In this document: positions 9,758 to 46,005 of the stretch, piece after piece
How the letters are laid out: each line of letters starts with the position of its first letter
How positions within the stretch are numbered: the first letter of the stretch is position 1
Source: an uncultured Candidatus Saccharibacteria bacterium
GTDB lineage: Bacteria > Patescibacteriota > UBA1384 > 2-12-FULL-50-11
Assembly (NCBI GenBank): GCA_964599405.1
Contig: CAZRED010000001.1
Span: forward strand, 75,528 to 139,527
Length of the DNA stretch: 64,000 bases
Reading direction: 5' to 3'
Notes under the pieces: generated by a model
The model's database searches: none
What the model was told of the DNA's origin: nothing
The model's input: only the letters and a program-made list of their open reading frames with translations
Position numbers and translations under genes: made by a program

Positions 9758-9993
9758 ATGGTAACCCGGCTAGCTACCCCAGTCAAGGTAAAATCAAGTC
9801 TCGAAGGGCTAATCTTTGAGGCCAGGACCGGATTTGCACCGGCGTAAAACGGTTTTGCAGACCGTCACCTCACTACTCGGTCACCTGGCCAATATAGACA
9901 TTATACCTGTAAATCTTAAGGTAAACGAGTGATTTGATAGGTATTTTCATTTTGCTACACTACCGACATCAACTAAACGGAGGTTGACGCACA

Positions 9994-11284: not shown

Positions 11285-11354
11285 GCGTAATGTGATTATA
11301 TCTTGCCCGCCACCCTTGTGTAAAGGAGATAACGGGGCTAATATTGCCTCTGAA

Positions 11355-14055: not shown

Positions 14056-14829
14056 CTATTCTTGGTTGCGCAAGAAGCGGCTGGTCAGATCGGCGGCTTC
14101 AGCACTACTGGAAACAGTCACCACCGGCCCGTGGTGGCGCCACCAGGTTAGCTGCCGGCGGATGTAGGCCCGACTGACCTTTTGTAGCTCCCGAATGGCT
14201 TCGTGATAACCCAATTGCCCGCCAAGGTGCAGGGCGGCGTAGCGGTAATCCAGGCCAATATTTGTCAACCACTCCGGACTAATTCCCTTCTCGATTAGCT
14301 CTTTCGTTTCGGCAAGTAATTTGTCGAATACTCTTACTTTCTTATAACGCTTATCGCTACGGCGATATAGTTCATCACGATCAACGCTGGGCATTAAAAT
14401 TAATGATTGAAAATCAACTGGAGCCTGTTTTCTGGAAAAACGTCCCCCGCCTGGCTGATAGCCTTCCAGCAGCGCTGTAACGTATAGGCCAGTACCGCCA
14501 ACGACAATTGGCAGTTTGTCAGAGCGCCAAATTTCTTCCAACTCTGCTTTGGCTAGAATAAGCCAATCTGCAAGAGTGAATCTTTCCCCAGGATCAACGA
14601 CATCGATTAACATCTGGTGAACATCGTCTATCATTCGCCGCGGCTTTCCCTGGAATTGATCAGGCGCTCCTTCTTTATTCGTGCCCACATCTAACCCCAT
14701 GTAAACCTGCCGGGAGTCGGCCGAAATTATTACTCCGTTGAATTTTTTAGCCAACTCAACGGCTAGCGCGGTTTTTCCCGAGCCGGTTGGTCCAACTACC
14801 GCAATTAATTTTCGCTTGCTATTTACCAT
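14056..14829 (-). CDS. miaA: tRNA dimethylallyltransferase
   Basis: LIAVVGPTGSGKTALAVELAKKF...ISADSRQVYMGLDVGTNK; compact at 257 aa. Confidence 0.8.
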   Translation of the reverse strand: MVNSKRKLIAVVGPTGSGKTALAVELAKKFNGVIISADSRQVYMGLDVGTNKEGAPDQFQGKPRRMIDDVHQMLIDVVDPGERFTLADWLILAKAELEEIWRSDKLPIVVGGTGLYVTALLEGYQPGGGRFSRKQAPVDFQSLILMPSVDRDELYRRSDKRYKKVRVFDKLLAETKELIEKGISPEWLTNIGLDYRYAALHLGGQLGYHEAIRELQKVSRAYIRRQLTWWRHHGPVVTVSSSAEAADLTSRFLRNQE

Positions 14830-18710: not shown

Positions 18711-19688
18711 ATGACAGCCGACACTAACTACGACGTGGCAATTATTGGTTCCGGCATTGCTGGGCTTTCGGCCGGACTATATTCCGGTCGCTACGAACTA
18801 CCGACCGCCGTTATCGGCGATATGTTGGGCGGCGCCACCTCCACTGCTTGGACGGTGGAAAACTACCCGGGCTACAAAGAAATTGACGGCTACGATTTGA
18901 TTATCAAGGTTAAAGAGCAAAACGAAGCGCTCGGCGTCAATATTATTAACGATCGCGTCACCGGTTTGGAAAAGACCGGGGATGGTTTTGAGCTGTCGCT
19001 GCGCGACGGCGGCGAGCACAAAGTTCAAGCGAAAACGGTGATTTTTGCCGTTGGTGCTGCGAGGCGCAAATTGGGCGTTGATAAAGAGGACGAATTTTCC
19101 CAGGGCAAAGGCGTCCACTACTGCGCTACCTGTGACGCCCCGCTCTACAAAGGTAAGGTTATTGGATTAATCGGCGGAGGAGACGCCTCCGTTAAGGGAA
19201 TGAACTTGGCTGTTCAGTACGCCGAAAAGGTTCACGCTTTTGTCCGAGGCGACAAGCTCAAAGCCGAACCGATCAACTACGAGCGCCTCGAGCCGCATAT
19301 TCAGTCCGGCAAAGTGGAGGTTCACTTCAAAACCGAAATTACCGAACTGTTGGGTACGGAGCGCCTAACCGGTGTTAAAACCAACGACGGCCGAGAGATT
19401 GAGTTGGACGGCGTATTTATTGAAATTGGGGCCATCCCAGAAGTGGAGCTGGCCGAAAAAGTTGGCGTCAAGCTCGACGAGCACGGCTATATCGGCGTCA
19501 ACAATATGATGGAAACTAATGTTCCGGGAATCTACGCCGCTGGCGACACCACTAGTTTCTTTGGCCATTTCAAACAAGATATTACTGCCGCCGCCATGGG
19601 CGCCGTCGCCGCAACGTCGGCCTTTAACTTTGTTCAAAGCCAAAACGCTAAAACCGTCAAAGAGCCTGCCAAAGCAGCCGCCAACTGA
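18711..19688 (+). CDS. trxB: thioredoxin-disulfide reductase
   Basis: YDVAIIGSGIAGLSAG FAD motif; redox-active CATCDA. Confidence 0.85.
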   Translation: MTADTNYDVAIIGSGIAGLSAGLYSGRYELPTAVIGDMLGGATSTAWTVENYPGYKEIDGYDLIIKVKEQNEALGVNIINDRVTGLEKTGDGFELSLRDGGEHKVQAKTVIFAVGAARRKLGVDKEDEFSQGKGVHYCATCDAPLYKGKVIGLIGGGDASVKGMNLAVQYAEKVHAFVRGDKLKAEPINYERLEPHIQSGKVEVHFKTEITELLGTERLTGVKTNDGREIELDGVFIEIGAIPEVELAEKVGVKLDEHGYIGVNNMMETNVPGIYAAGDTTSFFGHFKQDITAAAMGAVAATSAFNFVQSQNAKTVKEPAKAAAN

Positions 19689-21600: not shown

Positions 21601-22656
21601 ATGAGTGATGCCGTCGCCCTCGTCAAAGATCCAGTTGAGTCTGCTAAAGAAGCGGGTCTGCGTTATTTTTCCGACAATAAACTAACGATTAGCCGCGTCA
21701 AACACGGCGACGGGTTCCGCTACATTAGTAAAGACGAGGAACCGATCAGTGACGTCGACACCATTACTCGCATTAAATCCTTGGTCCTGCCGCCGGCTTG
21801 GGTAGAAGTGAAAATATCGCCAGTCGATAACAGCCACCTGCAAGCAGTGGGTATCGACGAAAAAGGCCGCAAGCAATACCGCTACCACCCGGAGTGGCTG
21901 AAGTTCCGCGACCAAACCAAGTACGACAAATTGATTGATTTCGGCAAAGCCCTGCCGAAAATCCGCACCCAAGTTTCCGTTGATATGTCTAAACAAGGCT
22001 TACCGCGCGAGAAAGTATTAGCAGCAATAGTCAAAATGCTGGAGAAAACGATGATTCGCATCGGTAATGAACAGTACGCCAAAGAAAACAAATCCTACGG
22101 CCTAACTACCCTCCAAAACCGCCATGTTGACGTTGGAACCGAGAAAGTCACCATCAATTTCAAGGGCAAAAGCGGCCAGTTTCACACTATTGAGTTGGAA
22201 GACCGCCGGCTGGCCCGGCTGATTGGCAAACTCCAGGATTTACCCGGTCAAGATTTGTTCCAGTTTATTGATGACAACGACAACCTCCATGGCATCGACT
22301 CGGCTGACGTTAACGAATACATCCAAGAAGCCGCTAACGATGAGTTTACCGCCAAAGATTTCCGGACTTGGCGTGGCACGGTCTTGGCCGCCTGGTTTCT
22401 GGCTGACTGCGAGCGCGCCAAAACCCAAAAGGAAAACAAAAAACTCGTCACCCAAATAGTTAAAGAAGTTGCCGCCGAACTAGGTAATACGCCAACAGTT
22501 TGCCGCAAGTGCTATATCCACCCGACTGTCATTGACAGCTTCCTGGCCGAATCCGGTATGACTATTAAAGCCATCAACACCATAGAAGTGGACACGGTTG
22601 ATTTACTGCCGGAAGAAAAAGTCGTTCTGGAATTCCTGAAACAAAACACCGCCTAA
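21601..22656 (+). CDS. DNA topoisomerase IB (poxvirus-like bacterial TopIB)
   Basis: RYFSDNK...GFRY...LPPAWVEVKISP...GRKQYRYHPEW; 351 aa. Confidence 0.75.
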   Translation: MSDAVALVKDPVESAKEAGLRYFSDNKLTISRVKHGDGFRYISKDEEPISDVDTITRIKSLVLPPAWVEVKISPVDNSHLQAVGIDEKGRKQYRYHPEWLKFRDQTKYDKLIDFGKALPKIRTQVSVDMSKQGLPREKVLAAIVKMLEKTMIRIGNEQYAKENKSYGLTTLQNRHVDVGTEKVTINFKGKSGQFHTIELEDRRLARLIGKLQDLPGQDLFQFIDDNDNLHGIDSADVNEYIQEAANDEFTAKDFRTWRGTVLAAWFLADCERAKTQKENKKLVTQIVKEVAAELGNTPTVCRKCYIHPTVIDSFLAESGMTIKAINTIEVDTVDLLPEEKVVLEFLKQNTA

Positions 22657-23486: not shown

Positions 23487-24092
23487 TTAGCGCAGGTTTT
23501 TGAGTTGTTCGTAGAGATCGCGTTCGGCACGGGAGAGGTGGTGGGGGATTTCAATAGCGATTACAACAGTTAAATCCCCTCGGCCGCGGCGGGTTTGCTG
23601 GCCTTTGCCGCGAAAACGGAAACCTTCGCCGGTTTGGACTCCGGCGGGGATTTTTAGCTCTATTTCGTCGCCAAATTGGGTTTTAAATTTTACCGTGTCC
23701 CCTAAAACGGCCTGGGGGATAGAGATCGAAATCTGCACTTGGACGTTGGCAAAGGCGCTTTCAAATAAATCTTCAAAAATTGAGCCAAATCCACCGCCGC
23801 CGGAACTGCGGAAACCGCCGAAACCGGAAAATCCGTCAAAGCCACCAGCCGCTCCCCCACTCTGCCCCCCACCAAAACCGCTACGGGTTCCGGCATGACC
23901 AAACTGGTCGTATGAGGCGCGTTTCTGGGCATTGCCTAAAACCTGGTAGGCCTCGTTAATTTCTTGGAATTTGGCCTTATCTCCCCCCTTGTCCGGGTGG
24001 AGTTTGTGAGCCATTTTTCGGTAGGCCTTTTTGATGTCAGCTTCGGTCGCTTTTTTATCGACGCCCAAAACCTCGTAGTAATCTCGTGCCAT
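23487..24092 (-). CDS. dnaJ: J-domain co-chaperone, DnaJ-like without zinc-finger domain
   Basis: DYYEVLGV...HPDK J-domain, G/F-rich region, C-terminal DnaJ-C fragment. No CxxCxGxG repeats; 201 aa. Confidence 0.8.
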
Positions 24093-24130
24093 TTCCCAGA
24101 AATTATACTGTAAAGGGAGCTTTACATCAA
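24090..24130 (-). promoter_or_regulatory. dnaJ promoter TTGATG-17-TATAAT-9 nt-ATG with embedded TGTAAAG-N4-CTTTACA palindrome
   Basis: Minus strand: TTGATG (plus 24125-24130), TATAAT (plus 24102-24107). The inverted repeat at 24109-24126 lies in the spacer. Confidence 0.55.
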
Positions 24131-24336
24131 AGTATATACTGCTATATTTTCTTTGCCGTCGGGTCGGGACGTTGGCCTGGAAGCGGGCAATCGTTATAGT
24201 CCTTCGGGACGGCGTAACAGCCTACCGGCCCACGGCACCAAAACACCCCGCAGGTGCGCACATGATAATAACAACCGAACTTTCCGGACGTGGGCACTAC
24301 TGCATTTGTAGCGTACTGCCCCGTTCAGGCGTTCCA

Positions 24337-25011
24337 ATGCTAATGGAGCGCGTAGATAGCCTCCGCCCGGAGATAAAAGAAAAATACGGAGCATGGACGA
24401 AACCGGACTTTGACACTGACCCATGGGGACGAACTGGTCTCGGCGAATCATTTGAATGCTTAGATCGAGACAATAACTCGGAAGAAATTCGACTTGGCTG
24501 GATACCTAGCAAAATCGAAAGAGCGCTTGTGTCGCTGGAGCTTTTAGGATTATGCAACGTCTTCGATCCTGAAAAGAAATCCCGAAAAGAGCGAATGCCT
24601 ACCGAGGCGATCTTGGAAGTCAGTGTCGGTCAAGGCACAAGAGGTTGGCACGTTAACGCTAATCTTGGCGACCCGGTCTGGGAAGTGATTAAAAGCAATT
24701 ACTTCTCGAGCGAGCTAATGCCGATTGTTAGGCAAAGGCTCCGGCGACTCTGGGAGGACTGGTACGGCAGTGACCACCAATACGGGATGTCAAACACTAT
24801 GGTTTTTGACGGTAACTCCGGAAAAGTCCTCCAGATCTACCACCCCGTTGGCAATGGGTTATGGATTGTGGGGAGCCAAGAAGCAACTAACGACTATCAG
24901 CTCATAGACCACAACACAGACAGCTATCGCGATGCCTTTGCCCACATTTACGGACTCTGCGTCGTTCTAGATGAGTGCCGCAAGCACATCGAGAGCTCCA
25001 AAACGACCTAA
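24337..25011 (+). CDS. hypothetical protein (island gene)
   Basis: Start MLMERVDSLRPE...; W/Y-rich, no motif. Terminator follows. Confidence 0.5.
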   Translation: MLMERVDSLRPEIKEKYGAWTKPDFDTDPWGRTGLGESFECLDRDNNSEEIRLGWIPSKIERALVSLELLGLCNVFDPEKKSRKERMPTEAILEVSVGQGTRGWHVNANLGDPVWEVIKSNYFSSELMPIVRQRLRRLWEDWYGSDHQYGMSNTMVFDGNSGKVLQIYHPVGNGLWIVGSQEATNDYQLIDHNTDSYRDAFAHIYGLCVVLDECRKHIESSKTT

Positions 25012-25053: not shown

Positions 25054-25281
25054 ATGGAAGAAATTAAAACAGTCAACGTCAACGTTCCGCGCAAAGCAAT
25101 CGTTATCAACAAGTACACCGAGCATTCCGGTGGCTGGACTTACTTTTTAGGATTTTTGGGCACGTTTATCTACTTTGTCCAAGGCGCCAGCACGTTCGGC
25201 GAAGGGTTTATTGGATTTCTGAAGGCCTTGGTTTGGCCGGCCTACGCCGTCTACCACATCTTCAAGTTCTTGGGGATTTAG
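25054..25281 (+). CDS. small membrane protein
   Basis: 75 aa, two hydrophobic helices. Confidence 0.4.
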   Translation: MEEIKTVNVNVPRKAIVINKYTEHSGGWTYFLGFLGTFIYFVQGASTFGEGFIGFLKALVWPAYAVYHIFKFLGI

Positions 25282-28403: not shown

Positions 28404-28901
28404 TTGCGGTTAATGCCACAGAAGCTCGATCAATACCGCGACCCAATCCTGGCTACCAATGAAAAAGTGATCGGTTTTTACGAGCGCGAATTTTATGTTT
28501 TTTCTAATTTCTCTAGTTTCCAGGTGGAGTGGCGGGGACGGCTTTGGCCAACGTCTGAACACGCTTTCCAGGCCGCCCATTTTTTCGACACTGCGCCGGA
28601 GCTGGTTGAACAAATTTTTAATGCCCGTTCCGCCCACGATGCTTTTAAAATCGCTAAAGCCAACGGCGACAAAGCGCCGAAGAATTGGGAAGAAATCAAA
28701 GTTGGGATTATGGAAGATATCTGCCGCCACAAACTCCTGCAACACCCTTACGTCGAAAAGAAGCTCCGCCAAACCAAAGACTGGCCGCTCGTGGAAGACT
28801 CGCCGAGCGATCCTTGCTGGGGTTGGGGTAAAGACCGGAAAGGCCGTAACGAACTCGGCAAGGTTTGGATGCGTCTGCGCGACGAACTCAATAAAAAGTA
28901 A
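28404..28901 (+). CDS. NADAR-domain protein (YbiA/DUF1768-like)
   Basis: FYVFSNFS...WPTSEHAFQAAHFFD NADAR signature; 165 aa. Confidence 0.65.
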   Translation: MRLMPQKLDQYRDPILATNEKVIGFYEREFYVFSNFSSFQVEWRGRLWPTSEHAFQAAHFFDTAPELVEQIFNARSAHDAFKIAKANGDKAPKNWEEIKVGIMEDICRHKLLQHPYVEKKLRQTKDWPLVEDSPSDPCWGWGKDRKGRNELGKVWMRLRDELNKK

Positions 28902-28933
28902 TTTCCAGCGGGTGGATACAATAAGGTGGCGAA

Positions 28934-29341
28934 CTAGCTTTTAGAGTGATGTTCCAACCAGCTGGCAATTTCTGGTAGTGCTACTTGTTTGCTTGCTACT
29001 TTCATCACAAATTGTTCTGCTTCTTGATTGGAAGCTGTCAGCTTAAAACCGTTGATAAATAAAAACCGAGCAACGCTAGCCAAGCCGGTGCGTTTATTGC
29101 CGTCAACGAAGATTTGATACGCCGCAAAACTTTCCAGATAGGTCGCGGCTTTGAGAAAAACTGTCGGGAATTGTTCTTCACCAAATACCGCTGACTTTGG
29201 TCTTTCGGCAGTTGATAGAAATAAGTTCATATCACGGACACCATGAGATCCACCAACTTTTTCGATGATTTGGTGATGGATATACAATATCTCCTCGCCA
29301 GTCAGATAGCGCGCCTGGCGATTACTTTTTGGCAAGCTCAT
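28934..29341 (-). CDS. doc: Doc/Fic-family toxin
   Basis: FVDGNKRTG Fic/Doc motif; start moved to MSLPKSNRQARYL (ORF-track N-extension unlikely). Confidence 0.7.
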   Translation of the reverse strand: MSLPKSNRQARYLTGEEILYIHHQIIEKVGGSHGVRDMNLFLSTAERPKSAVFGEEQFPTVFLKAATYLESFAAYQIFVDGNKRTGLASVARFLFINGFKLTASNQEAEQFVMKVASKQVALPEIASWLEHHSKS

Positions 29342-29531
29342 CAAGTGCCGGTCGGTACTGGTCAATGAACTTATTTGTCCACTCGTGTAGCTCTGGGCTA
29401 ATGACAGTTTTGGCTGGTTTTTTGACGATAACCTCAACCTGGTCGCCCACGGTGACGTTCAGTTTTTTCAGCTCGCTTTTAGGAATAATTACTCCTGTTG
29501 AACTGCCGATCTTGATCAGTTTTTGAGTCAT
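29322..29531 (-). CDS. AbrB/MazE-fold antitoxin (Phd-like partner of Doc)
   Basis: MTQKLIKIGSSTGVIIPKSELKKLNVTVGD; 20-nt overlap with doc. Confidence 0.65.
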   Translation of the reverse strand: MTQKLIKIGSSTGVIIPKSELKKLNVTVGDQVEVIVKKPAKTVISPELHEWTNKFIDQYRPALDELAKK

Positions 29532-32525: not shown

Positions 32526-33305
32526 TTATGGTCGGAGAGTCCCGGCAAAGACCTGCCAGGCCAGTAAGCTCTTGGCGACAAGTGAAAGAATAATATACGC
32601 CCGTTCGCCGTAGAGATAATCCGCCCATTTACCGATCTTTTTGTACTGGAGGGTCATATTGATAGCAAAACAGTTGAAGAAAACGAAGATCGAAACGTAA
32701 ATCCAGTAAACAAACGTTGGGATATCGCCGGAGCCGTAGCGACTAGCCGCCCAAAACCAAATTGCCACCACCAACCACGGGATTACCCCGGCAAACGTCC
32801 CCAACTTAAAGGCCAACCAATTGGGTTTTTGGCCGCTCTCTAATGTGCCTTGGTTGTATATTTCCATTGCCAGGCCAGTGAGATTCATGATTGCCACTAA
32901 GGCAAAAATCATCAGCAAACTCGTCAGGTCATAGATCCCCACCAACATAGCAATGGCCACCATCATGACTGAAGCCGAGACGCTGTACTCCCACCACCGG
33001 GCCTTATTGACGCCCCTAAGCAGGTTGGCGTTGTAACTGCGATTGTAAACAGTGGCAATAATCAGGTGGGCCAGGGCGGAGATTGCCAGAAATCCCGCTA
33101 CCAGCCAGACCAGAGGCATATTAAACAGTGTCTCACTAGCTGGGATCAGCGATTGGCTAGCGATATCAAAGCGCAAGAAACCGACATTAACCGGCAAGGA
33201 AAAATCAGCGCTCAAATATACAATCGCCGCCGCCTGCAGTGCATGCAGCAGTGCCATAACCAAATTGAACTTACGTAGCTTTGCTAATCTAACGTCTTGC
33301 TCCAT
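32526..33305 (-). CDS. heliorhodopsin (7-TM retinal protein)
   Basis: Full-length collinearity with heliorhodopsin: FNLVMALLHALQ, RWWEYSVSASVMMV (E counterion), GVIPW, KWADYLYGERAYIILSLVAKSLLAWQ (Schiff-base Lys). Confidence 0.8.
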   Translation of the reverse strand: MEQDVRLAKLRKFNLVMALLHALQAAAIVYLSADFSLPVNVGFLRFDIASQSLIPASETLFNMPLVWLVAGFLAISALAHLIIATVYNRSYNANLLRGVNKARWWEYSVSASVMMVAIAMLVGIYDLTSLLMIFALVAIMNLTGLAMEIYNQGTLESGQKPNWLAFKLGTFAGVIPWLVVAIWFWAASRYGSGDIPTFVYWIYVSIFVFFNCFAINMTLQYKKIGKWADYLYGERAYIILSLVAKSLLAWQVFAGTLRP

Positions 33306-34153: not shown

Positions 34154-35884
34154 CTACGTAGTATCAGTAAAACATACGTTGTAGATCTCGTCGCCCAAAT
34201 CTTTCCAATGACTAGATTTATAATTGAAGGTTTCCGTGGAGAAATCTATTTTTCCAGAAAGTTTACTAAAGCCCTTATCATAGTAAGCGAAGCCATTCAC
34301 CTTATTATTCTCGATCAATATACGCATACAATGAATCAAGCCAGTAATCGTAGTCACGGTCAGCGCTCGGCTAACCTTCTGCTTAGTGGTCCACATATCG
34401 TTCGGTATTTGGTTCTTGAATGCTTTAAGAAACTCATTTATTTCTTTAGTGCAAAATTCTACGTATTCATTTAATAGGGCAGTATCTTTACCGTCTCTAA
34501 GCTCACTCTTTTTCCCTTCACTCCAAACATTAAAAAGCGTGTCCTTCCCTGAAAGCTTAACTACGTGCCTTACTCCGTAGGAAACTATAGATGTTGTTTT
34601 TAGCTTACCCTTGTCGAAAAAGTGTCTTTCGAGAACTTTATCCATTGGGTCAAGCTCAGCAAGTTTATTCATTACCTTCTTGGCTATAGATACCTCGTCG
34701 AACGGATTTACTATTGTATTAATTACTTGACGGAGAGACCCACTGGTTCTTGTCTGTCTATCATTAATTTCTAAAAATAGCTTCGCTTCAAACCTTCCTC
34801 GGTCTTCGAGAGATAGGTCGCTAGGGAAGACAATACCCGTAATCAAAAGGTGCTGCTTATCTCTTAAACTACTAATGTGCGTGTCATGTGCATCATCACC
34901 TTCATGGTATGAAAATACCCTATGTTGTCCGTCGATAATCCCAATGTTCCCGGCAACCTTTGGGATCCTAATTTTTATAGGATCCTTCATTACCCCTGTA
35001 CTTATTGGGAGATTTATCCGGTCGTTACTTTCATACTCAAGAAGTTGTAAGTCATTAGGTAAAGAGACGATGATATTATTTACGAATACCCGACCCTCAC
35101 TAGCAAGGTACTTACGCATATTACGTATTTTGTTACCGAGGATAATTCTTTGATAAACAAAGTCACTATCTTGCCAACCATCCCTTCTCAGTACATAAGC
35201 TTGCTTTAATAAGGTGTTTGGGTCAATTAGAAAAGATACCAGGTTATGCCCACTTGGAAAGCCACTCGGAGTTTCTGGAAGAATAAGGCCAACATAATCA
35301 TCCCCCGGAGAGCCGCTATTCTGTGGCCCTATCTCCTCAAATCCAACCCCGATAAATTTAAATAGTTCGAATCTTGCAGATCTTTTAATCGTTTTTGAGA
35401 GGCTTAAGAAATAACTACGTGACTTGTAATCCATAAAATGAAGGTGCTGATAACGATCTCTAAGTGACTGAGTTACCTCTTCGTGCGAAACATATAAGAA
35501 TGCTAACTTAATATCATGACTAGCGTAGCCCGCGGTAGAATTTTTCCCGTAATTTGGGATTTTGCTCTTAAAAAGCTCAATTAAGTCATTTTGGTTGTTC
35601 TTGCAGTTAGTAAAGAACTCAGCTTTCTTCCGAAGGTGATCAGTATCACTTGTTGTAGTATCCTCTACGATAAGAATAAGGTTCTCGAAAACAAAAACAT
35701 TATCTAGATCGCTTTCTTGTCCACATAGATTAATTTTAAAGTCTTCGGCGACTGCCATAAATCCCATATTGCTAAAGGTAGTGCGTACGTCCCTTCTAAT
35801 TTTTCTCTTAAGGCCTAATCTTTCACTGTCTGATAGGTTAGGCATATTATTTATTGTCTTGATGCATAATTCTCTTATACCCAA
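34154..35884 (-). CDS. DGQHR-domain (DndB-like, ParB/Srx fold) protein
   Basis: GIIDGQHRV at aa 318-322, codons verified at 34919-34933. 576 aa with about 220 aa N-terminal domain of unknown function. Overlaps upstream MTase stop. Confidence 0.7.
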   Translation of the reverse strand: MGIRELCIKTINNMPNLSDSERLGLKRKIRRDVRTTFSNMGFMAVAEDFKINLCGQESDLDNVFVFENLILIVEDTTTSDTDHLRKKAEFFTNCKNNQNDLIELFKSKIPNYGKNSTAGYASHDIKLAFLYVSHEEVTQSLRDRYQHLHFMDYKSRSYFLSLSKTIKRSARFELFKFIGVGFEEIGPQNSGSPGDDYVGLILPETPSGFPSGHNLVSFLIDPNTLLKQAYVLRRDGWQDSDFVYQRIILGNKIRNMRKYLASEGRVFVNNIIVSLPNDLQLLEYESNDRINLPISTGVMKDPIKIRIPKVAGNIGIIDGQHRVFSYHEGDDAHDTHISSLRDKQHLLITGIVFPSDLSLEDRGRFEAKLFLEINDRQTRTSGSLRQVINTIVNPFDEVSIAKKVMNKLAELDPMDKVLERHFFDKGKLKTTSIVSYGVRHVVKLSGKDTLFNVWSEGKKSELRDGKDTALLNEYVEFCTKEINEFLKAFKNQIPNDMWTTKQKVSRALTVTTITGLIHCMRILIENNKVNGFAYYDKGFSKLSGKIDFSTETFNYKSSHWKDLGDEIYNVCFTDTT

Positions 35885-36770
35885 ACTTCAAATATTTTTT
35901 ATTAAGCTCTGCCCCCACTGAGTTTCTGCCCTGCTTTTCGGCAGCGACAGAGGTAGTAAACGTACCAGCGAAGGGGTCGAAAATCGTATCTCCCTTATTG
36001 CTACTCACTTTTATAAAGAGCTCTAGCAAATTCAGTGGCAGTTGGCATGGATGGTCTTTCTCCTTCAGCTCGCCCGGCTCCATGGACCGAAACTTATTTC
36101 CAAGGTTCCGAACTCGATCCTTGGAATTATTCTTCATCATGTGCATATCTATAGTATCGATTAGGCCATCTTGTAGCTCTATCAGATCAAGGAACCTTAA
36201 TAAGTCGTATGAGGTTCTGCCCTTAGATCCTTCTGCGATACGTTTCCGTACTACTGGCGCGGTTGGATTTTTATAGTGCTGTACTAAATTTTCTCTATTG
36301 AAGACATAGCCCTTCGTTGACTTAGTAAAAAATAAAACAGACCTCTGGCTTCGCGTATAATTATTTTTTGAATGCCCAATATTTGTGGGGTAGTGCCATG
36401 TAATCCATCTCCGGTAATTAAGACCTAGCTCATCTTGAAGATAGGGCAGAAGGCGGGCATTAATCTCGGGGTAACTAATTAGGTAGAAGCTCCCCTTGTC
36501 ACTTAAGATTCTTGGGATATCGCGCAATTTGGCTTCTAGCCAGGCATAATACTCCTTCCAGGACTTGGAGTCGTCAAAGCTACCATAGTCGAGCCCCATA
36601 TTGTAGGGAGGATCCGTAATAATGAGGTCTATACTTTTACTAGGGATCTGACTGATTATCTGTTCGCAATCACCTAGCACGAGGATGTGTCCTGTTTTTT
36701 CTTTCTCAATAAAGTCAAAGGCAAAGCCTTGCTTGCTTATAGGTTTGAGGATAGATTTTATATTCCTCAT
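35847..36770 (-). CDS. DNA methyltransferase (beta class, DPPY; N4-C or N6-A)
   Basis: LIITDPPYNMG motif IV, N6_N4_Mtase-like; 307 aa. Confidence 0.75.
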   Translation of the reverse strand: MRNIKSILKPISKQGFAFDFIEKEKTGHILVLGDCEQIISQIPSKSIDLIITDPPYNMGLDYGSFDDSKSWKEYYAWLEAKLRDIPRILSDKGSFYLISYPEINARLLPYLQDELGLNYRRWITWHYPTNIGHSKNNYTRSQRSVLFFTKSTKGYVFNRENLVQHYKNPTAPVVRKRIAEGSKGRTSYDLLRFLDLIELQDGLIDTIDMHMMKNNSKDRVRNLGNKFRSMEPGELKEKDHPCQLPLNLLELFIKVSSNKGDTIFDPFAGTFTTSVAAEKQGRNSVGAELNKKYLKFGYKRIMHQDNK

Positions 36771-36807
36771 AAGCCTATTCTATACAAATATTCTCGAAAA
36801 GAAGTGA

Positions 36808-37899
36808 CTATTTTTTGCCTTTGCGGCGGTTATCGTCGCGGCAGAGCATTTGGCAGTTATCGGCATTAGTTTTTCCGCCCTCAACCCACGGCGTAATGTG
36901 GTCGGCTTCCATTTCTTCAATCTCAAAATGTTTACCACAATCCGGACAAACACCTTTCTGTCGTTCAAAGGCCTCGCGTTTCATGTTATCGGTAAACGCC
37001 CGAATATTTAGACACTTTTCTTCACGGGTTAGAACATATTCATAGATACCGGACTTTTTTGTTACGTCTTCGTCCATCATCAACTGTGTAACTTCCGCTT
37101 CCAGCTTGTCGGTATCGAACTTATCGTCCTTAAATTGATTGTAAAATCTGCCCCAATCCAAACCTTTCATTTCTTTTCGATACTTCGGAAAAGTCAGACG
37201 TGTCCAGCTTATAACATTTTGGAAGTACGACCAAAGCTCATTGGCATTTTGGTCGTGTTGGTGCTTGGCCATGTAGTCTTCTATTTTTCCGTCGTTAATC
37301 CAAGCTAGCGTAGTTTCCAGTATCTCTTGCCGAATTGGCGAACCGTTCACTAGCTGCCCGCCATCGCTAGCTAGCAAATAAGCTGCACAGTTAGATTTGC
37401 TGAATTTCAGTTTGGCGTCACTTAGCCATGGTCCAGTATAAATCGCATTGCGGAGCTCTTGGTCGGTTAATTTTTCGCCAGCGATGTTAATGATTCTGAA
37501 CCAATCCAGTCTTTCTTTGTCGGTGCCTTCGCACCAGTAAATCATCAGCTCATAGTCCTGAATTTGCTTCTGTTCCTCATCAGTTAGGTTGTGGAAAAAG
37601 CGATCTTTGAGCGAAAAATCACCGTTGACATATTGCCCAATACTTATTGTTCGTTGCTGGCCGTCCATAACTTCAAAGTTCCCTTGGTCGGTTTTGACCC
37701 AATACATTACGTTCAGCGGAAAACCATTTTTAATCGTTTCTATTACTGCGTCGCGCTGCTTGTCTTTATAAACAAATTCACGTTGGTATCTTGGGCGGAT
37801 GTCGAGTTTACCACCGTAAGCTATGACGCCTTCCTCGGCGCTGTCTTTGTAGCCGACGATCACTTCTCGAACAGGAATTCGTTGTAGTTCAATTTTCAT
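36808..37899 (-). CDS. DUF262 (DGQQR NTPase-like, ParB fold) + HNH endonuclease; SspE/GmrSD-like
   Basis: VMDGQQRTISIGQY (codons verified at 37651-37665). C-terminal CPDCGKHF...ADHITPW...NADNCQMLCRDDNRRKG HNH. Confidence 0.75.
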   Translation of the reverse strand: MKIELQRIPVREVIVGYKDSAEEGVIAYGGKLDIRPRYQREFVYKDKQRDAVIETIKNGFPLNVMYWVKTDQGNFEVMDGQQRTISIGQYVNGDFSLKDRFFHNLTDEEQKQIQDYELMIYWCEGTDKERLDWFRIINIAGEKLTDQELRNAIYTGPWLSDAKLKFSKSNCAAYLLASDGGQLVNGSPIRQEILETTLAWINDGKIEDYMAKHQHDQNANELWSYFQNVISWTRLTFPKYRKEMKGLDWGRFYNQFKDDKFDTDKLEAEVTQLMMDEDVTKKSGIYEYVLTREEKCLNIRAFTDNMKREAFERQKGVCPDCGKHFEIEEMEADHITPWVEGGKTNADNCQMLCRDDNRRKGKK

Positions 37900-38983
37900 T
37901 TTGTGTCCTTTTCCTTTGCTTAATTATTATTCTTGCGTATGTCGCTTTGCCGTTGATGATAGCGCCTACATATTTTTTATGCTGTTCATCAAGATATGTT
38001 GGATTCCCTTGTATTAACGAGTCTGACTTCTCTCTCTTGTCTGCAAATAAGCCAATAATTTCAAACTGTTGGGGGTTATATTTATCTAGAAAAGTAATCG
38101 GAACACCCATTGCACCATTCCAATCCATAGGTACGTCTGCAAACTTAGAAACCTCTATCGCATCATAATTGTCGTATTTTGGATATTCTTCAGGCGTGTA
38201 TTTTTTATACAAGTCTACCTCCTCGTGACGCTTGGTGGTGTCAAGGTTTGTGAACCATACTATGCTTCCCATACTGATGTATTTGATGCCATTCTCGATT
38301 TTCTTTCTTGATTCGGTCGGGATATCGTAATCATCAGGAACTTGGAACCACTTTGTGCCACCATTATCATATCCAAGCCACATTTTATTTTCTTTAATAA
38401 GTTTGAAGGTCTCTTTATACGTGATGGCATTCTGGTTACCAAGAATCAAAAACTTTTTATCATATTCCATAAGCTGCGCCACATACTCGCGAAACAATGA
38501 AAACGGCGGGTTTGTCACTACGATATCGGCTTCTTTGAGCAGCTCTATACACTCATGACTTCTAAAATCACCGTTGCCTTGTAAGGACGATGAAGTATTT
38601 TTAGTGTGCTTTATAAGATTCTGAACATCACCCAAATCTACAGCGCCATCACCATCACTGTCAGGCACTTCGTTTACTTCGACTTTAAATGGTTGCTTAC
38701 CATCTGGCTTTAGACCCTCCATCTCGAAGATTGGCAACTGCGTTCCAGCAATAGGCGATTTAGTGTAGCTGGTGGCGATAAGTTTTTTTAAGCCCAAATG
38801 GTTAAAGCTGCTCGCAAAATACTTGAAAAAATTACTCTCATACGGATCGTCACAATTACAAAAAACAACCTTGCTGCGGAATTGATCTTTGTATCGCGTT
38901 AACTCTTTTTCGATATCAGCACGTTGTGTGTAAAACTCGTCCTTTTTCTGCAACTTTGCTGTATGTAAATTATTCTGCGCCAT
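37889..38983 (-). CDS. N6-adenine DNA methyltransferase (NPPF motif)
   Basis: IVVTNPPFSLF motif IV; 364 aa; TAATG coupling with upstream small ORF. Confidence 0.7.
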   Translation of the reverse strand: MAQNNLHTAKLQKKDEFYTQRADIEKELTRYKDQFRSKVVFCNCDDPYESNFFKYFASSFNHLGLKKLIATSYTKSPIAGTQLPIFEMEGLKPDGKQPFKVEVNEVPDSDGDGAVDLGDVQNLIKHTKNTSSSLQGNGDFRSHECIELLKEADIVVTNPPFSLFREYVAQLMEYDKKFLILGNQNAITYKETFKLIKENKMWLGYDNGGTKWFQVPDDYDIPTESRKKIENGIKYISMGSIVWFTNLDTTKRHEEVDLYKKYTPEEYPKYDNYDAIEVSKFADVPMDWNGAMGVPITFLDKYNPQQFEIIGLFADKREKSDSLIQGNPTYLDEQHKKYVGAIINGKATYARIIIKQRKRTQNEN

Positions 38984-39252
38984 TAAATTAGCCGGGTGTT
39001 TTTGAGCTTTGCTAGGTAGCTAAAGTCATCTTCTGATATTTTGGGCACAACATTGAACGTTATTTTCGTTTTTGATGTGTCGCTTATTGCACCGCCTAAT
39101 ACTACAAAGTATTTTATCTCTCCCTTAGCTTCTTTTGTTGATTCAACTTCTACCTCAACTTTTATCGCACCCCAAACTACACCGTTCTTAAGATTATTGA
39201 TAAGTTCGTTGGTGAGATTCTCAATGTAAGATGAAAGCTCAACTTTCTCCAT
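38983..39252 (-). CDS. small operon-leading protein of unknown function
   Basis: 89 aa; its stop overlaps the MTase start (TAATG). Confidence 0.45.
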   Translation of the reverse strand: MEKVELSSYIENLTNELINNLKNGVVWGAIKVEVEVESTKEAKGEIKYFVVLGGAISDTSKTKITFNVVPKISEDDFSYLAKLKNTRLI

Positions 39253-39289
39253 TTGCCAAATTCTACTCTTTTTAACCTGAAAAAGCCAG

Positions 39290-39330
39290 GTTTGGGGAAC
39301 AACCCACCCCGGGTGGGTTGTTCAGGGGCT
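39290..39330 (-). terminator. tandem hairpins between HEPN-like gene and defense operon (attenuator/terminator)
   Basis: CAACCCACCccgGGTGGGTTG and AACCTGgctttttCAGGTT. Confidence 0.4.
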
Positions 39331-39408
39331 ATGGTCGCGCGGGACAGATTTGGTCACGGTAGATCGGGTAAATCAACTAATAACATTCTTGCATATGGAA
39401 GGGATTAA

Positions 39409-40131
39409 TTATCTTTTTTTGAATTTTTTACAATTGCAACCATCCGTTAAGCATTCTACAAAAAGAATATTTTTCCCCTTCATTACGAAATGAGCAGCTT
39501 TTGCATGACCGCAGTCACAGATAGCAAACAGACCCTTTTTCCTGCCGAATTCTACTACTTCCTCATTAGATACAACACCATAAGTTTTCGCGAAACTTCT
39601 TTCACTTCTAGAATTAATCTTCTTTGATGCGAGATATTCAACTTTTACCTCTATGCCGTTATCTATCCTGCTCTTTGTCATTCCGTAACCAGTAGCAACT
39701 TGTTTGTCTTCCAATGATTTATTTATCTTATTTAACTCTTGAAAAATCTTTTCGTACCGTGAACATGCCAAACCAAGATGGGAATACTCTATTTCGCTAG
39801 TAAAAAACCTGTGGATTGCCTTATTCCTGACATCATAGAGTTTATTCAGCTCGTCATATATTGATCGGGTGATAATTTTTTTCTCATATGCTAATTGATA
39901 AATTATCCTCTCTGACAAGTAATCGTTTCCTTCTTGAAAAATATATTTCTCAGTAATTCTGTTGGTTTTTTCTTCTAGCTGTTGCTCTAAAACTAGACAA
40001 ATCCGACACTGTGCTTCGACTAGAGAAGAATACAATACCAACCCCTCTATTAACGAGCCATTATCATAAGCCTTATTGAGCAGTAACCTTGTTGCAGCAA
40101 ATGCGGAAATAAAGTTTTCTAACTTTTTCAT
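39409..40131 (-). CDS. HEPN-like (Rx4H) protein with C-terminal Cys-rich zinc ribbon
   Basis: DVRNKAIHR Rx4H motif; C-terminal CDCGH...CLTDGCNC; 240 aa. Starts 23 nt after the dnaK stop. Confidence 0.45.
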   Translation of the reverse strand: MKKLENFISAFAATRLLLNKAYDNGSLIEGLVLYSSLVEAQCRICLVLEQQLEEKTNRITEKYIFQEGNDYLSERIIYQLAYEKKIITRSIYDELNKLYDVRNKAIHRFFTSEIEYSHLGLACSRYEKIFQELNKINKSLEDKQVATGYGMTKSRIDNGIEVKVEYLASKKINSRSERSFAKTYGVVSNEEVVEFGRKKGLFAICDCGHAKAAHFVMKGKNILFVECLTDGCNCKKFKKR

Positions 40132-40142
40132 TTACCCAAGAG

Positions 40143-40162
40143 AAAGAGAGCTGGTTAGCTCT
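40143..40162 (-). terminator. weak hairpin overlapping dnaK stop (partial terminator, read-through likely)
   Basis: AGAGAGCTggttAGCTCTCT followed on the minus strand by TTCTCTT then ATG of the HEPN-like gene. Confidence 0.35.
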
Positions 40163-42107
40163 CTTTCTTGTCTTCTCCTTTATTTTCTTCTTTTGGTTCG
40201 TCCTCTTTTGGAGGTTGCTCGGCCGATCCGCCAGCTGGCGGAGTATCAGGCGAGGCCGGAGGGGTTTCCCCACCCTTTGGCTCGTCCTTAGTTTCAGAAT
40301 AGGCGGCGGATCCGACTTTTTGGAGGGCGGTGGAGAGTTTTTCGGCTTCCGCGCTAATTTTCTCTTTATCGTCACCAGGGAGGACGCCGCGAACGGCGGT
40401 GATAGCGTCTTCGACCTCCCGCTTGTCGTCCGGTTTTACTTTATCGCCCAAATCTTTCAGGGATTTTTCGGCGGTGTGGATGAGCCCTTCGGCCAAGTTG
40501 CGGGTTTCGACCAGCTCTTTTTTCTTAGCGTCGTCGGCCGCGTGTTTTTCGGCTTCGGCTTTCATCTTCTCTACTTCCTCATCCGACAGGCCGCTGGAAG
40601 CGGTGATGGTGATTTTCTGCTCTTTACCGGTGGCTTTGTCTTTAGCCGAGACGTTCAAGATGCCATTTGCATCAATGTCGAACGTAACCTCAACTTGCGG
40701 AACGCCTCGGGGAGCGGGCGGAATGCCGTCGAGCATAAATTTGCCGAGCGTCCGGTTGTCGCTGGCCATGGGCCGTTCGCCTTGGAGAACGTGGACTTCC
40801 ACCGAAGTCTGGTTGTCAGCGGCGGTGGAGAAGGTTTCGGTTTTGCTGGTGGGGATAGTGGTGTTGCGGGTAATCAGCGCCGTCATGACACCGCCGAGAG
40901 TTTCCAAGCCAAGAGTGAGCGGAGTAACGTCGAGCAGCAGAATATCTTTGACTTCGCCGGATAATACGCCGCCCTGGAGAGCCGCGCCAAGCGCTACCGC
41001 TTCGTCCGGGTTAACGCCTTTGCCTGGCTCTTTGCCAAAAACATCCTTTACGATTTGCTGAATTAACGGCATGCGGGTCATCCCACCGACAAGGATTACT
41101 TCGTCGACGTCGCCTTTGGAGAGCTTGGCGTCTTTGAGAGCCGCTTCGGCAATCGGACCGGTTTTTTTAATCAGGTCGCCGACGAGCGCTTCCAGTTTGG
41201 CTCGGCTTAAGTTCATTACTAAGTTCTTTGGACCGTCGGCATCAGCGGAGATAAACGGCAGGTTAATCTCGGATTCCTGGGTAGTGGAGAGCTCGATCTT
41301 GGCTTTTTCGGCTCCTTCTTTGATGCGCTGCATCGCCATAGCGTCACCACGTAGATCCACGCCTTCTTTAGTTTTAAATTCTTCGACAATCCAATCCATC
41401 AAGCGCAGGTCAATATCGTCACCGCCCAAGTGGGTGTCGCCGTTAGTGGAGAGTACTTCGAAGCTGGACTCGCCGTCGGCTTCGCCGACTTCTATAATGG
41501 TGATATCAAAGGTACCGCCACCGAAGTCATAAACAGCGATTTTTTGGTCTTTTTTGTCTTCTTTACCCAAGCCATAAGCCAGAGCGGCGGCAGTTGGTTC
41601 GTTGATAATGCGTTTAACCTCTAAACCAGCGATCTTACCGGCATCTTTAGTGGCTTGGCGCTGGGAGTCGGTAAAGTAAGCCGGGACGGTAATCACCGCT
41701 CCGTCAACTTTTTCGCCCAAGTAACTTTCGGCGTCAGCTTTAATTTTCGAGAGGATCATCGCCGAGACTTCTTGCGGAGAGTATTCGGCATCGCCCATCT
41801 TGACTTTGACGCCTTCGCCGCCTTTAACGATTTTGTACGGCATTAGCTTGATGTCGCGTTGAACTTCTTCGTCTTCAAACTTGCGGCCAATAAGGCGCTT
41901 AACCGAGTAAACGGTATTTTCCGGATTAGTAACGGCTTGGCGCTTGGCGAGTTGGCCAACGAGGCGTTCACCCTTTTTGTTAAACGCGACAATGGATGGA
42001 ATGAGGTTACCCCCTTCGGCAGAAGGGATCATTTTGGCTTTGCCGCCTTCCATAACGGCGACGGCTGAGTTGGTAGTTCCTAAGTCAATTCCGATGATTT
42101 TAGGCAT
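40155..42107 (-). CDS. dnaK: molecular chaperone DnaK (Hsp70)
   Basis: [22 protein letters not shown], full-length 650 aa; SD AAGGGGT. Confidence 0.95.
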
Positions 42108-42202
42108 TTGTACCCCTTGTGCCTAAGATTACCGAAGCTTTGCTTTGTATGATTTTTCCCATTTTTTGTATGCCTCCTTGAGATTTTGATTACCTAAAAA
42201 GT

Positions 42203-42219
42203 GTAAAGTTTCCTTTACA
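42203..42219 (-). promoter_or_regulatory. TGTAAAG-N4-CTTTACA palindrome in dnaK promoter (candidate heat-shock operator)
   Basis: TGTAAAGtttcCTTTACA between TTGACA (-35, plus 42223-42228) and the -10 region; same palindrome at 24109-24126 upstream of dnaJ. Confidence 0.55.
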
Positions 42220-42274
42220 TATTGTCAAGAAATAATGCTCTAGATAGTTGATTACTGTTTAATCACTTGCTAGT

Positions 42275-42841: not shown

Positions 42842-42857
42842 GCGGGGATTTTTCTAC
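42830..42857 (+). terminator. rho-independent terminator
   Basis: CCCCGCgtaaGCGGGG then ATTTTTCT. Confidence 0.7.
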
Positions 42858-43384
42858 CCCTTAGAAACCCGAACTTTTGCCGGACGGAGAACTTTACCGT
42901 TTAGGAGCCAGCCGGCTTCGACTTCGTCGATAACATGGTCGGCCGGAATATCGGATTCTTCATGGGAAATTGCTTCGTGCAGCTCTGGATCGAATTCGGC
43001 GCCTTTAGCCTGGATACGCTGCAAGCCCATTTCGGCCAAGGCGGATTCAAGTTGCTTTTCAATCTGCTGAAGGCCAGAAATATAGCTCAATAGTTTTTTG
43101 AAATCGTCTTCGGTGATTTTTTCAAAATCTTCAGCCGAAATTGCCGGGGCGTGGGTACTGGCGCGGTAGAAATTATCAAAAATTGGGAAGAGCTTGGCAA
43201 TAGCTTCCGTCTGTGACCGTTCGGAAATTGCCTGCCGCTCACTGTCAAAACGTTTCCGGGAATTATCCAACTCAGCCGCCAAACGCAGCTTGTCGGCAAT
43301 CGCCACTTCCAATTCGGTTTCTAATTTAGATTTTTTATCAGGTTTCTTGGCAGTCATTACGAACGTCATTGTACTAATACTCAT
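42854..43384 (-). CDS. grpE: nucleotide exchange factor GrpE
   Basis: LDNSRKRFDSERQ...; 176 aa. Confidence 0.8.
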   Translation of the reverse strand: MSISTMTFVMTAKKPDKKSKLETELEVAIADKLRLAAELDNSRKRFDSERQAISERSQTEAIAKLFPIFDNFYRASTHAPAISAEDFEKITEDDFKKLLSYISGLQQIEKQLESALAEMGLQRIQAKGAEFDPELHEAISHEESDIPADHVIDEVEAGWLLNGKVLRPAKVRVSKG

Positions 43385-43486
43385 AAAAACAATCCAGCCC
43401 TCGAGGGCATTGTATATGTTCTAACATATATTCTAATTTGAACGGATTTTGCGGTTTTAAGCACAGTATATTAAGGTAGTTCAGTA

Positions 43487-45530: not shown

Positions 45531-45568
45531 TTGCATCCGTATACGTTTAAACATATATTGTGCCCATG
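45531..45568 (+). promoter_or_regulatory. promoter TTGCAT-17-TATATT-6 nt-ATG overlapped by palindrome ATATACGTTTAAACATATAT
   Basis: TTGCAT 45531-45536, TATATT 45554-45559, ATG 45566; palindrome 45539-45558. Confidence 0.55.
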
Positions 45569-45922: not shown

Positions 45923-46005
45923 ATATATACTAGAACATATACGGTGACCTAGAAAAACTGGATATTGTTTTGTTTATTGGTATCAGAGAGTAAAATTGAG
46001 TAACT

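Follow-up and report, generated by a model that had tools for sequence, protein, structure and literature searches.

A palindrome over the dnaK and DnaJ-like gene promoters of a Berkelbacteria-like Patescibacterium is a candidate operator for CylR2-like XRE repressors, some of them fused to a small heat-shock protein

A 64-kb stretch of DNA (hereafter the window), assigned from its sequence to a Berkelbacteria-like Patescibacterium, carries the inverted repeat TGTAAAG-N4-CTTTACA in the promoters of two chaperone genes, dnaK and a gene for a short DnaJ-like protein (the J gene). The palindrome recurs at the corresponding promoters of related genomes and ahead of groES on a further contig. It is also tightly coupled, in metagenomic DNA, to genes for one family of XRE-type helix-turn-helix (HTH) proteins that resemble the repressor CylR2, including members in which the HTH is fused to a complete small heat-shock protein (sHSP). 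The palindrome is probably the operator of an autoregulated CylR2-like XRE repressor, with an HTH-sHSP fusion as the favored candidate, that controls a chaperone regulon.

The palindrome occurs twice in the window, each time exactly and each time ahead of a gene on the minus strand, and there is no further match even when two mismatches are allowed. Dinucleotide shuffles of the window yielded a mean of 0.26 matches at up to two mismatches, only one of 100 shuffles reaching two, and the analytic expectation for the exact 14-base palindrome is ∼2.4e-4 per 64 kb. Of the two hexamers of the arms, GTAAAG is present in 16 copies and CTTTAC in 17, and they are paired at a spacing of 4 only. The centers of the half-sites TGTAAAG and CTTTACA lie 11 bp apart, that is, one helical turn. 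The initial annotation had described a palindrome common to the dnaK and dnaJ promoters, and both exact copies were confirmed, although the dnaK copy starts at 42202 and not, as given there, one base later at 42203. The label "dnaJ" also needs correction, as the product is a short J-domain protein of 201 amino acids (aa) that has no zinc finger and only part of DnaJ_C.

Both promoters are predicted to be of the sigma-70 type with an embedded operator, as judged from a spacing of 16-18 bp between their hexamers and from the overlap of these hexamers with the palindrome (Table 1). The J-gene promoter, TTGATG-17-TATAAT, and the dnaK promoter, TTGACA-17-TACACT, each match the consensus at 10 of 12 positions. 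The repeat had been placed between the -35 and -10 elements in both cases; this holds for the J gene, where it fills the spacer, but not for dnaK, where the -10 lies inside the right arm. In the relatives, the dnaK -10 reads TACAAT or TACATT at a spacing of 16-17 bp, and the -35 is found 3-4 nt 5' of the left arm. The reported spacing of 9 nt between TATAAT and the J-gene ATG is correct. The accompanying suggestion of a nearly leaderless J transcript is plausible, since the first ATG of the transcription unit follows a TATAAT or TAAAAT at a distance of 8-10 nt not only in the window but also in the related loci L085 and L088.

A wider comparison was made with 21 compiled sites from nine dnaK, one groES, five regulator-gene, and six J-gene promoters. 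The module TTGACA-N3-4-TGTAAAG-N4-CTTTACA-(A/T/C)T is common to all 15 dnaK, groES, and regulator-gene promoters. The six J-gene sites have no upstream TTGACA and are followed by TATAAT or TAAAAT 1-17 nt downstream. Across the 21 sites the center of the palindrome falls anywhere between about -17.5 and about -38.5 with respect to the predicted start, yet core promoter elements are always covered, an arrangement that suits a repressor that excludes RNA polymerase. Activators need a fixed geometry and rarely tolerate large shifts in position. Repression, rather than activation, is therefore the mode of action that the sites suggest.

Two isolated half-sites in the window were considered as operators and rejected, one at 16421 because it is a match within a coding region and one at 11314-11320 because it is a plain -35 hexamer. 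The latter, a lone CTTTACA on the minus strand, supplies the -35 of the tRNA-Gly promoter TTTACA-18-TATAAT. TTTACA is thus a normal -35 variant in the window, and an operator arm can accordingly double as a promoter element.

The exact palindrome is found at dnaK in all five close relatives that cover the upstream region (L085-L089), and is absent from ∼75 more distant dnaK loci (1.36 Mb). In a six-way alignment of the dnaK upstream regions, the only conserved blocks are TTGACAA(A)ATGTAAAG-N4-CTTTACA and a GGAGG ribosome-binding site, the remainder being unalignable. The J-gene orthologues of L085 and L088, which are ∼75% identical, are preceded by CGTAAAGCAAACTTTACT and CGTAAAGCAAACTTGACA, respectively; the core GTAAAG-N4-CTTTAC is therefore kept at these promoters. 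When a weight matrix made from the dnaK and J-gene sites was used to scan ∼170 kb of DNA from the clade, scores of 12 bits or more were obtained at the dnaK and J-gene promoters only.

A scan of metagenomes for the exact palindrome returned at least 120 stretches (0.70 Mb). Six loci among the 120 matches listed are chaperone promoters. One of them, L173, contains both dnaK and the J gene with a palindrome at each; L192 (grpE-dnaK-J) and L208 (grpE-dnaK) carry it ahead of dnaK; L267 and L175 carry it ahead of the J gene or a J-gene operon; and in L213 it precedes groES, a third chaperone class. The sequence TTGAC[AT] lies 0-4 nt upstream of the palindrome in 17 of the 120 matches listed, against a chance expectation of less than 1. 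The initial annotation had proposed a non-CIRCE operator common to chaperone promoters, an idea to be given up if the palindrome were missing from other chaperone promoters or no more frequent than in random DNA. This comparison was run and the idea survived it, as the site was found at dnaK, J-gene, and groES promoters of independent metagenome contigs. Its description as lineage-specific stands in part: use of the site at chaperone genes appears restricted to a Patescibacterial group, but the same palindrome serves a widespread family of CylR2-like XRE proteins.

Negative control of heat-shock genes is usually described through HrcA and its CIRCE element, HspR and HAIR, or CtsR. The activity of HrcA is coupled to chaperone availability, and HspR is autoregulated and DnaK-dependent. 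None of the three boxes is credible in the promoters studied here, which agrees with the earlier statement that the palindrome is not CIRCE, HAIR, or the CtsR box. CIRCE (TTAGCACTC-N9-GAGTGCTAA), searched with up to five mismatches in the window and the clade loci, gave only chance-level matches outside promoters, and the other palindrome-bearing chaperone and regulator loci contained none. As a positive control, CIRCE was recovered with up to three mismatches from 26 of 76 more distant loci, most other sampled Patescibacteria included. In these outgroups it lies directly upstream of dnaK or 1.2-2.2 kb upstream, and in L091 it is followed by hrcA-grpE-hsp20-dnaK. No hrcA was found at grpE-dnaK of the window clade, and in the window and L085 a divergent ComEC gene adjoins grpE upstream. 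Matches to HAIR (CTTGAGT-N7-ACTCAAG) in the window and clade loci had two or three mismatches and were all inside coding regions. The CtsR box, (A/G)GTCAAA-NAN-(A/G)GTCAAA, had no match in the window and a single three-mismatch match in L089, far from chaperone genes.

In its kind of control the proposed operator would resemble CIRCE, through which a repressor acts on dnaK and groE from an inverted repeat at a sigma-70-type promoter. It differs in being unrelated in sequence, arm length, and spacing, and in that HrcA is a winged-helix protein whereas the candidate regulator has an XRE HTH. HspR/HAIR and CtsR offer a second parallel, as lineage-restricted alternatives to CIRCE that repress dnaK, clp, and groE via repeats over core promoters, but their motifs are different and they belong to other protein families (MerR-type in the case of HspR, and CtsR).

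The protein family to which the palindrome is coupled was identified from the genes next to it. A homologous XRE HTH was found by tblastn in 35 of the 120 palindrome loci listed, compared to 1 of 80 control dnaK loci (1.36 Mb). The palindrome is almost always upstream of the XRE gene and in the same orientation, either 0-90 nt from its start or, where a single gene for a small membrane protein intervenes (DUF2178 in L274), at a distance of 225-800 nt, a position that is the signature of an autoregulatory operator. Stand-alone XRE genes of this kind sit on contigs of 28-70% GC, so the family and its operator are widespread.

By sequence comparison the HTH belongs near CylR2. Palindrome-associated HTH domains match Pfam HTH_3 at 55-61 bits. 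In a phmmer search against the PDB, the HTH of the fusions matched the PbsX-family structure 9k3w (E 1.6e-12) and CylR2 (E 7e-11), and the stand-alone XRE of L085 matched CylR2 at E 7e-8. All fusions and most palindrome-linked XREs have the recognition-helix signature RQ(T/S)(I/V)I(S/A)(L/I/V)E, next to RQTIN(G/A)(I/L)E in CylR2 and 9k3w (RQTINGIE in CylR2 itself). CylR2 is a small XRE-type homodimer that binds and represses the cytolysin promoter of Enterococcus faecalis and is co-encoded with the membrane protein CylR1; a homologous XRE, GakR, has been reported as a positive regulator (PMC3709268 and bioRxiv 10.64898/2026.09.04.749385 for CylR2; the latter also for GakR). The stand-alone XREs described here share with CylR2 both the homologous HTH and the pairing with a small membrane protein. 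The main inverted repeat in the CylR2 promoter region (pAD1-type plasmid), however, is TTTTGTCAAGTG-T-CACTTGACAAAA and not TGTAAAG-N4-CTTTACA, and the DNA specificity therefore differs. CylR2 also differs in that it controls a lantibiotic toxin rather than chaperones and has no sHSP domain.

Two matches of the metagenome scan, L244 and L270, place the palindrome ahead of an XRE-type gene, within its promoter, and in both of these genes HTH_3 is fused to HSP20. At an E-value cutoff of 1e-10, a search with the L244 protein returned at least 166 clusters. Almost all of them are two-domain proteins of 215-290 aa, and one comes from a metagenome-assembled genome (MAG) of Candidatus Berkelbacteria; proteins similar to that of L270 make up another, smaller branch. 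Where the databases name these proteins at all, the only label is "Hsp20 family protein", and none of the curated NCBIfam models reaches its cutoff for them. An N-terminal XRE HTH is followed by a full sHSP that makes up the C-terminal two thirds of the protein (Pfam HSP20, 81 bits). This part is complete, with an N-terminal MPWSP...FFDEP region, an alpha-crystallin domain, and the C-terminal I-x-I motif KKIxIK, and the best PDB matches of the alpha-crystallin part are Hsp16 and HspA (E 1e-19 to 1e-16). The likeness to sHSPs of the Hsp20/IbpA type thus covers the C-terminal two thirds of the candidate regulator, and the difference lies in the N-terminal HTH; to our knowledge, known sHSPs carry no DNA-binding domain.

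The association was also approached from the protein side, by fetching the genomic context of fusions picked by protein similarity alone. All four protein-picked fusion promoters (L287, from Berkelbacteria, L289, L291, and L301) contain the exact palindrome 26-37 nt before the start, within the module TTGACAA-NN-TGTAAAG-N4-CTTTACAAT. Together with L244 and L270, the exact site is found in the promoters of six fusion genes. In four of five exact-site fusion genes (L244 and L270 included) the ATG lies 8 nt after the palindrome, from which these genes are predicted to be leaderless; 6 nt separate the -10 from the ATG in the fusion-regulator genes. A divergent fusion, L300, has the symmetric variant TGGAAAG-TATA-CTTTCCA at -33 (9968-9985). 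Here a T-to-G change in one arm is mirrored by an A-to-C change in the other, as expected if operator and regulator co-evolve. A tblastx comparison of the L270 fusion contig and other fusion loci with the window clade gave no informative match.

Taken as a model, a dimeric CylR2-like XRE (HTH_3) repressor would bind both half-sites. Because the operator sits atop the core promoter, with the right arm forming the -10 at dnaK and the palindrome filling the spacer at the J gene, the bound dimer would exclude RNA polymerase from both genes. In the Berkelbacteria-like lineage, which is without hrcA and CIRCE at grpE-dnaK, the site would join dnaK and the DnaJ-like gene in one regulon, to which related contigs would add groES and the gene of the regulator itself. 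Upon heat or proteotoxic stress, the sHSP moiety may shift its oligomeric state or be captured by unfolded clients, and this change would pull the HTH off the DNA and derepress the chaperones. Once DnaK and DnaJ had cleared the clients, the repressor would rebind. The sensing and resetting steps are suggested by the domain architecture, and a role in heat shock by the identity of the target genes and the presence of the sHSP domain. Escherichia coli IbpA, reported to sense aggregation and to regulate its own expression, offers a precedent for an sHSP as a stress sensor. As a more tentative extension, HTH-sHSP fusions could be master heat-shock or proteotoxic repressors, with the sHSP as the sensor, in the branch of Patescibacteria that lost HrcA and CIRCE at these genes.

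Several observations weigh against this model. The 64-kb window contains neither an XRE gene of the palindrome family nor a fusion gene, and no fusion gene was found in the ±10-kb dnaK loci of the relatives. Among the matches listed, 37 XRE genes adjoin exact palindromes, and ∼35 of them encode stand-alone proteins of 62-76 aa. The only XRE near dnaK in the close relative L085 belongs to a paralogue group linked to DUF6159. The upstream region of grpE in the window has no palindrome. Finally, L301, which encodes a fusion, has a second exact palindrome (19193-19210) that forms a TTTACA-16-TAGAAT promoter 40 nt 5' of a tRNA-Met(CAT) gene (19250-19325), which ftsH follows at a distance of 235 nt; targets other than chaperones may therefore exist.

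The main alternative is that the operator is as described but its regulator is a stand-alone CylR2-like XRE of 60-75 aa, possibly acting together with a small membrane partner in the manner of CylR2 and CylR1. We consider this alternative unlikely. In its favor, in addition to the preponderance of stand-alone genes and the lack of a fusion in the window and on the dnaK contigs of its closest relatives, many XREs share a two-gene operon with a gene for a small membrane protein (DUF2178, for example), and L085 has a 68-aa stand-alone XRE between dnaK and the J gene (14166-14369, minus strand). The relatives of this XRE in L293 (10001-10210) and L297 (4996-5196) are similar; the three proteins have 66-69 aa and are followed by a ∼300-aa protein (DUF6159 in L085 and L297). 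Their promoters, however, share TTGACA-N4-5-GTAAAAATATATTACA (GTAA-N7-TTAC), with a spacing one base shorter than that of the chaperone operator, and neither L088 nor the window has the gene at this position. The L085 XRE and its DUF6159 partner were therefore set aside as the regulator on account of this differently spaced operator, and the L085-type XREs are probably a paralogous regulator-operator system. Stand-alone members of the wider family, on contigs of such varied GC content, show no visible link to chaperone genes, whereas the fusions occur in Berkelbacteria-type genomes and have exactly the promoter-operator module of dnaK and groES. On this basis the regulator in the window genome is more likely a fusion than a stand-alone paralogue.

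Three candidates within the window were tried as the regulator and rejected. The HTH_3 open reading frame (ORF) at 45560-45922 (plus strand, 120 aa) has an antitoxin-like C-terminal HTH of another subfamily, and its score with the family profile is 30.7 bits; L085 has no gene at the place where this ORF is inserted, between the metallo-beta-lactamase gene of ComEC and yebC. A divergent ORF of 177 or 188 aa (42275/42308-42841) lacks a Pfam domain and has no conserved counterpart among the relatives; in L088, 76 bp separate the end of grpE from dnaK. The conserved divergent neighbor p75 (25054-25281) was dropped as a DNA-binding candidate because the translation of its L088 orthologue reads as hydrophobic and membrane-like.

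A different view is that the protein bound at the palindrome is an activator, which would recruit RNA polymerase under stress, especially at J promoters without a good -35. The J promoters of L085, L088, and L267 indeed have no recognizable -35 and carry the palindrome in its place, and the homologue GakR acts positively according to the report cited above. This is nonetheless improbable, as the dnaK, groES, and fusion promoters are already near consensus (TTGACA-16/17-TACAAT) with their -10 covered, the placement of the site with respect to the -10 differs by more than 20 bp from target to target, and the closest characterized homologue, CylR2, is a repressor (PMC3709268).

It is more improbable still that no dedicated protein binds the palindrome, and that it is a promoter quirk, its arms holding TTTACA and TACAAT-like hexamers, or else an RNA hairpin or terminator. 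The right arm does double as the -10 at dnaK and as the -35 in L175 and L301, the tRNA-Gly promoter uses the same heptamer as its -35, and at some dnaK sites a T-run follows the hairpin, which folds at -6 to -12 kcal/mol. The left arm, however, is invariant and has no promoter role, symmetry is kept by the mirrored double change in L300, and the coupling to one HTH family in the listed loci needs a protein. As an RNA element the palindrome has a 7-bp stem with two G-C pairs and lies upstream of the predicted transcription start, a terminator scan calls none at either site, and no T-run accompanies the sites of the J gene and the fusion genes. That the palindrome is a diverged site of HrcA/CIRCE, HspR/HAIR, or CtsR is scarcely credible: it shares with CIRCE and HAIR the form of an inverted repeat over chaperone promoters, but is built as 7-N4-7 rather than 9-N9-9 (CIRCE), 7-N7-7 (HAIR), or a direct heptad repeat (CtsR), the best consensus matches in clade DNA are at chance level and outside promoters, the outgroups keep canonical CIRCE almost unchanged and hrcA is missing at grpE-dnaK, and the genomic coupling is to an XRE HTH.

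The assignment of the window rests on its genes. Its DnaK is 80-86% identical to proteins from Patescibacteria MAGs, two of which are named Candidatus Berkelbacteria, and Logan run SRR6868922 also assembles sequence of the window. Nine scattered tRNAs, many ORFs without a Pfam match, and a low-GC island with methylase and HNH genes had prompted the consideration of a large-phage origin. This was rejected because housekeeping genes lie in the flanks (AlaRS, YceG, RuvX, ComM, ComEC, RecG, S1, TrxB, CofD, YebC, and RuvC), a search for a phage relative of the window found none, and the closest genomes are Patescibacteria MAGs. Exact matches to the proteins encoded at its ends lengthened the available sequence by 1.6-2.6 kb only.

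The 201-aa product of the J gene consists of a J domain, a linker rich in glycine and phenylalanine, and only the final portion of DnaJ_C, with no zinc-finger domain detected by Pfam, and is predicted to be a short DnaJ-like co-chaperone rather than a canonical DnaJ. The ancestral order indicated by comparison of the loci is grpE, operator, and dnaK and then, 3-5 kb further on, an M23 peptidase gene, p75, a second operator, and the J gene. The two operator-bearing genes of the window are separated by an inserted 18-kb stretch that includes a defense island. The positions of the chaperone genes and of their promoter elements are collected in Table 1.

Table 1. Chaperone genes, palindrome copies, and predicted promoter elements in the 64-kb window
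Feature	Position	Strand	Evidence and remarks
dnaK (HSP70, 650 aa)	40155-42107	minus	Pfam, 844 bits
J gene (short DnaJ-like co-chaperone, 201 aa)	23487-24092	minus	Pfam, translation
grpE (176 aa)	42854-43384	minus	Pfam; synteny with L085-L089; upstream of dnaK in the same orientation
Candidate operator copy 1, TGTAAAGGGAGCTTTACA, TGTAAAG-GGAG-CTTTACA (gene strand TGTAAAG-CTCC-CTTTACA)	24109-24126		J-gene promoter; weight-matrix score 25.5 bits, the maximum; orthologous sites in L085, L088, L267, L173, and L175
Candidate operator copy 2, TGTAAAGTTTCCTTTACA, gene strand TGTAAAG-GAAA-CTTTACA	42202-42219		dnaK promoter; invariant in L085-L089; also present in L173, L192, and L208
Predicted -35 of J gene, TTGATG	24125-24130	minus	overlaps first 2 bp of operator
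Predicted -10 of J gene, TATAAT	24102-24107	minus	1 nt from operator, 9 nt before ATG
Predicted -35 of dnaK, TTGACA	42223-42228	minus	3 nt upstream of operator; invariant in upstream alignment
Predicted -10 of dnaK, TACACT	42200-42205	minus	formed by right arm of operator
Possible divergent promoter, TTTACA-16-(TG)cTATATT	24121-24148	plus	consensus match only, 10/12 with TG

In the possible divergent promoter, an operator arm would serve as the -35, and transcription would proceed into a GC-rich spacer and on to a 224-aa ORF. This 197-nt spacer (24140-24336), between the J-gene promoter and the non-conserved ORF (24337-25011), folds at -76 kcal/mol (z = -2.6). It was rejected as a known RNA because Rfam gave no match at E up to 1 and the fetched loci showed no conservation of the spacer.

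The leaders and transcription units behind the palindrome vary among relatives. The dnaK leader is 94 nt long in the window as compared to 36-39 nt in four of five relatives, and 113 nt in L086. Within the window leader (42100-42179, minus strand), AAGGAGG-N10-ATGGGAAAAATCATA is found, and ATGGGAAAAATCATA encodes MGKII, the N-terminus of DnaK in the relatives. These codons open a 20-codon upstream ORF (uORF) whose stop overlaps codons 2-3 of dnaK, so that the leader looks like a partial 5' duplication or insertion with the ancestral start remaining as a coupled uORF. In L085 (15397-16041) and L267, a gene for a calcineurin-like metallophosphoesterase stands between the operator-promoter and the J gene, and the regulated unit there is a two-gene operon.

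Other genes are also found behind the palindrome. In the related low-GC loci L200, L202, and L219, TTGACAtc(a/t)(g/a)TGTAAAG-N4-CTTTACA lies 29 nt 5' of a parB gene. In L281, a DUF3467 gene (332-619, minus strand) is located 287 nt 3' of a TTGACAAAA-TGTAAAG-N4-CTTTACA module and may be a further target.

The region between and around the chaperone genes holds several features of separate interest. Directly 3' of dnaK is a low-GC (38-42%) island at 34154-40131 that has no counterpart in the relatives. It encodes a DndB-like protein, an N6/N4 DNA methylase, a GmrSD_N+HNH nuclease, and an EcoRI-type adenine methylase, in addition to a Trypco2-like small ORF and a Cys-rich ORF of 240 aa, and is probably an acquired defense or restriction-modification island. 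A heliorhodopsin gene (Pfam PF18761, 313 bits) lies at 32526-33305 on the minus strand, a bacterial type IB topoisomerase gene at 21601-22656 on the plus strand, and NADAR and Fic/DOC genes side by side at 28404-29437. ComEC, at 43487-45525, is present as separate Competence and metallo-beta-lactamase ORFs.

A second repeated element of 22 nt, GAATATAT-NN-TAGAACATATAC with the inverted repeat TATATGTT/AACATATA, occurs upstream of grpE (43412-43433, minus strand) and of yebC (46006-46734), the latter copy at 45921-45942 on the plus strand. Two exact copies are present where none is expected, and the grpE upstream regions of four relatives are without it. It could be another operator or a genome-specific promoter module.

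Control of chaperones by a repressor and its operator is of a known kind, but we found no published description of this operator, regulator family, or sensor architecture. Literature searches for the motif, for heat-shock regulation in Patescibacteria, for XRE-Hsp20 or HTH-alpha-crystallin fusions or any sHSP acting as a transcription factor, and for DUF2178 returned nothing relevant. Patescibacteria, also known as the Candidate Phyla Radiation, are reduced and mostly uncultured and have very few transcription factors. For these organisms the analysis supplies a precisely defined, conserved candidate operator together with its first putative targets, namely dnaK, the DnaJ-like gene, groES, and the gene of the candidate regulator itself. 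It also supplies a concrete candidate regulator that can be purified, with an architecture that suggests that the chaperone itself is the sensor. A putative cognate DNA site is also assigned to a large, unannotated family of small CylR2-like XREs, which aids the prediction of regulons in metagenomes. Should the HTH-sHSP fusions indeed be master repressors of the kind considered above, they would add a fourth mechanistic class to the heat-shock repressors of bacteria, with chaperone and regulator united in one polypeptide.

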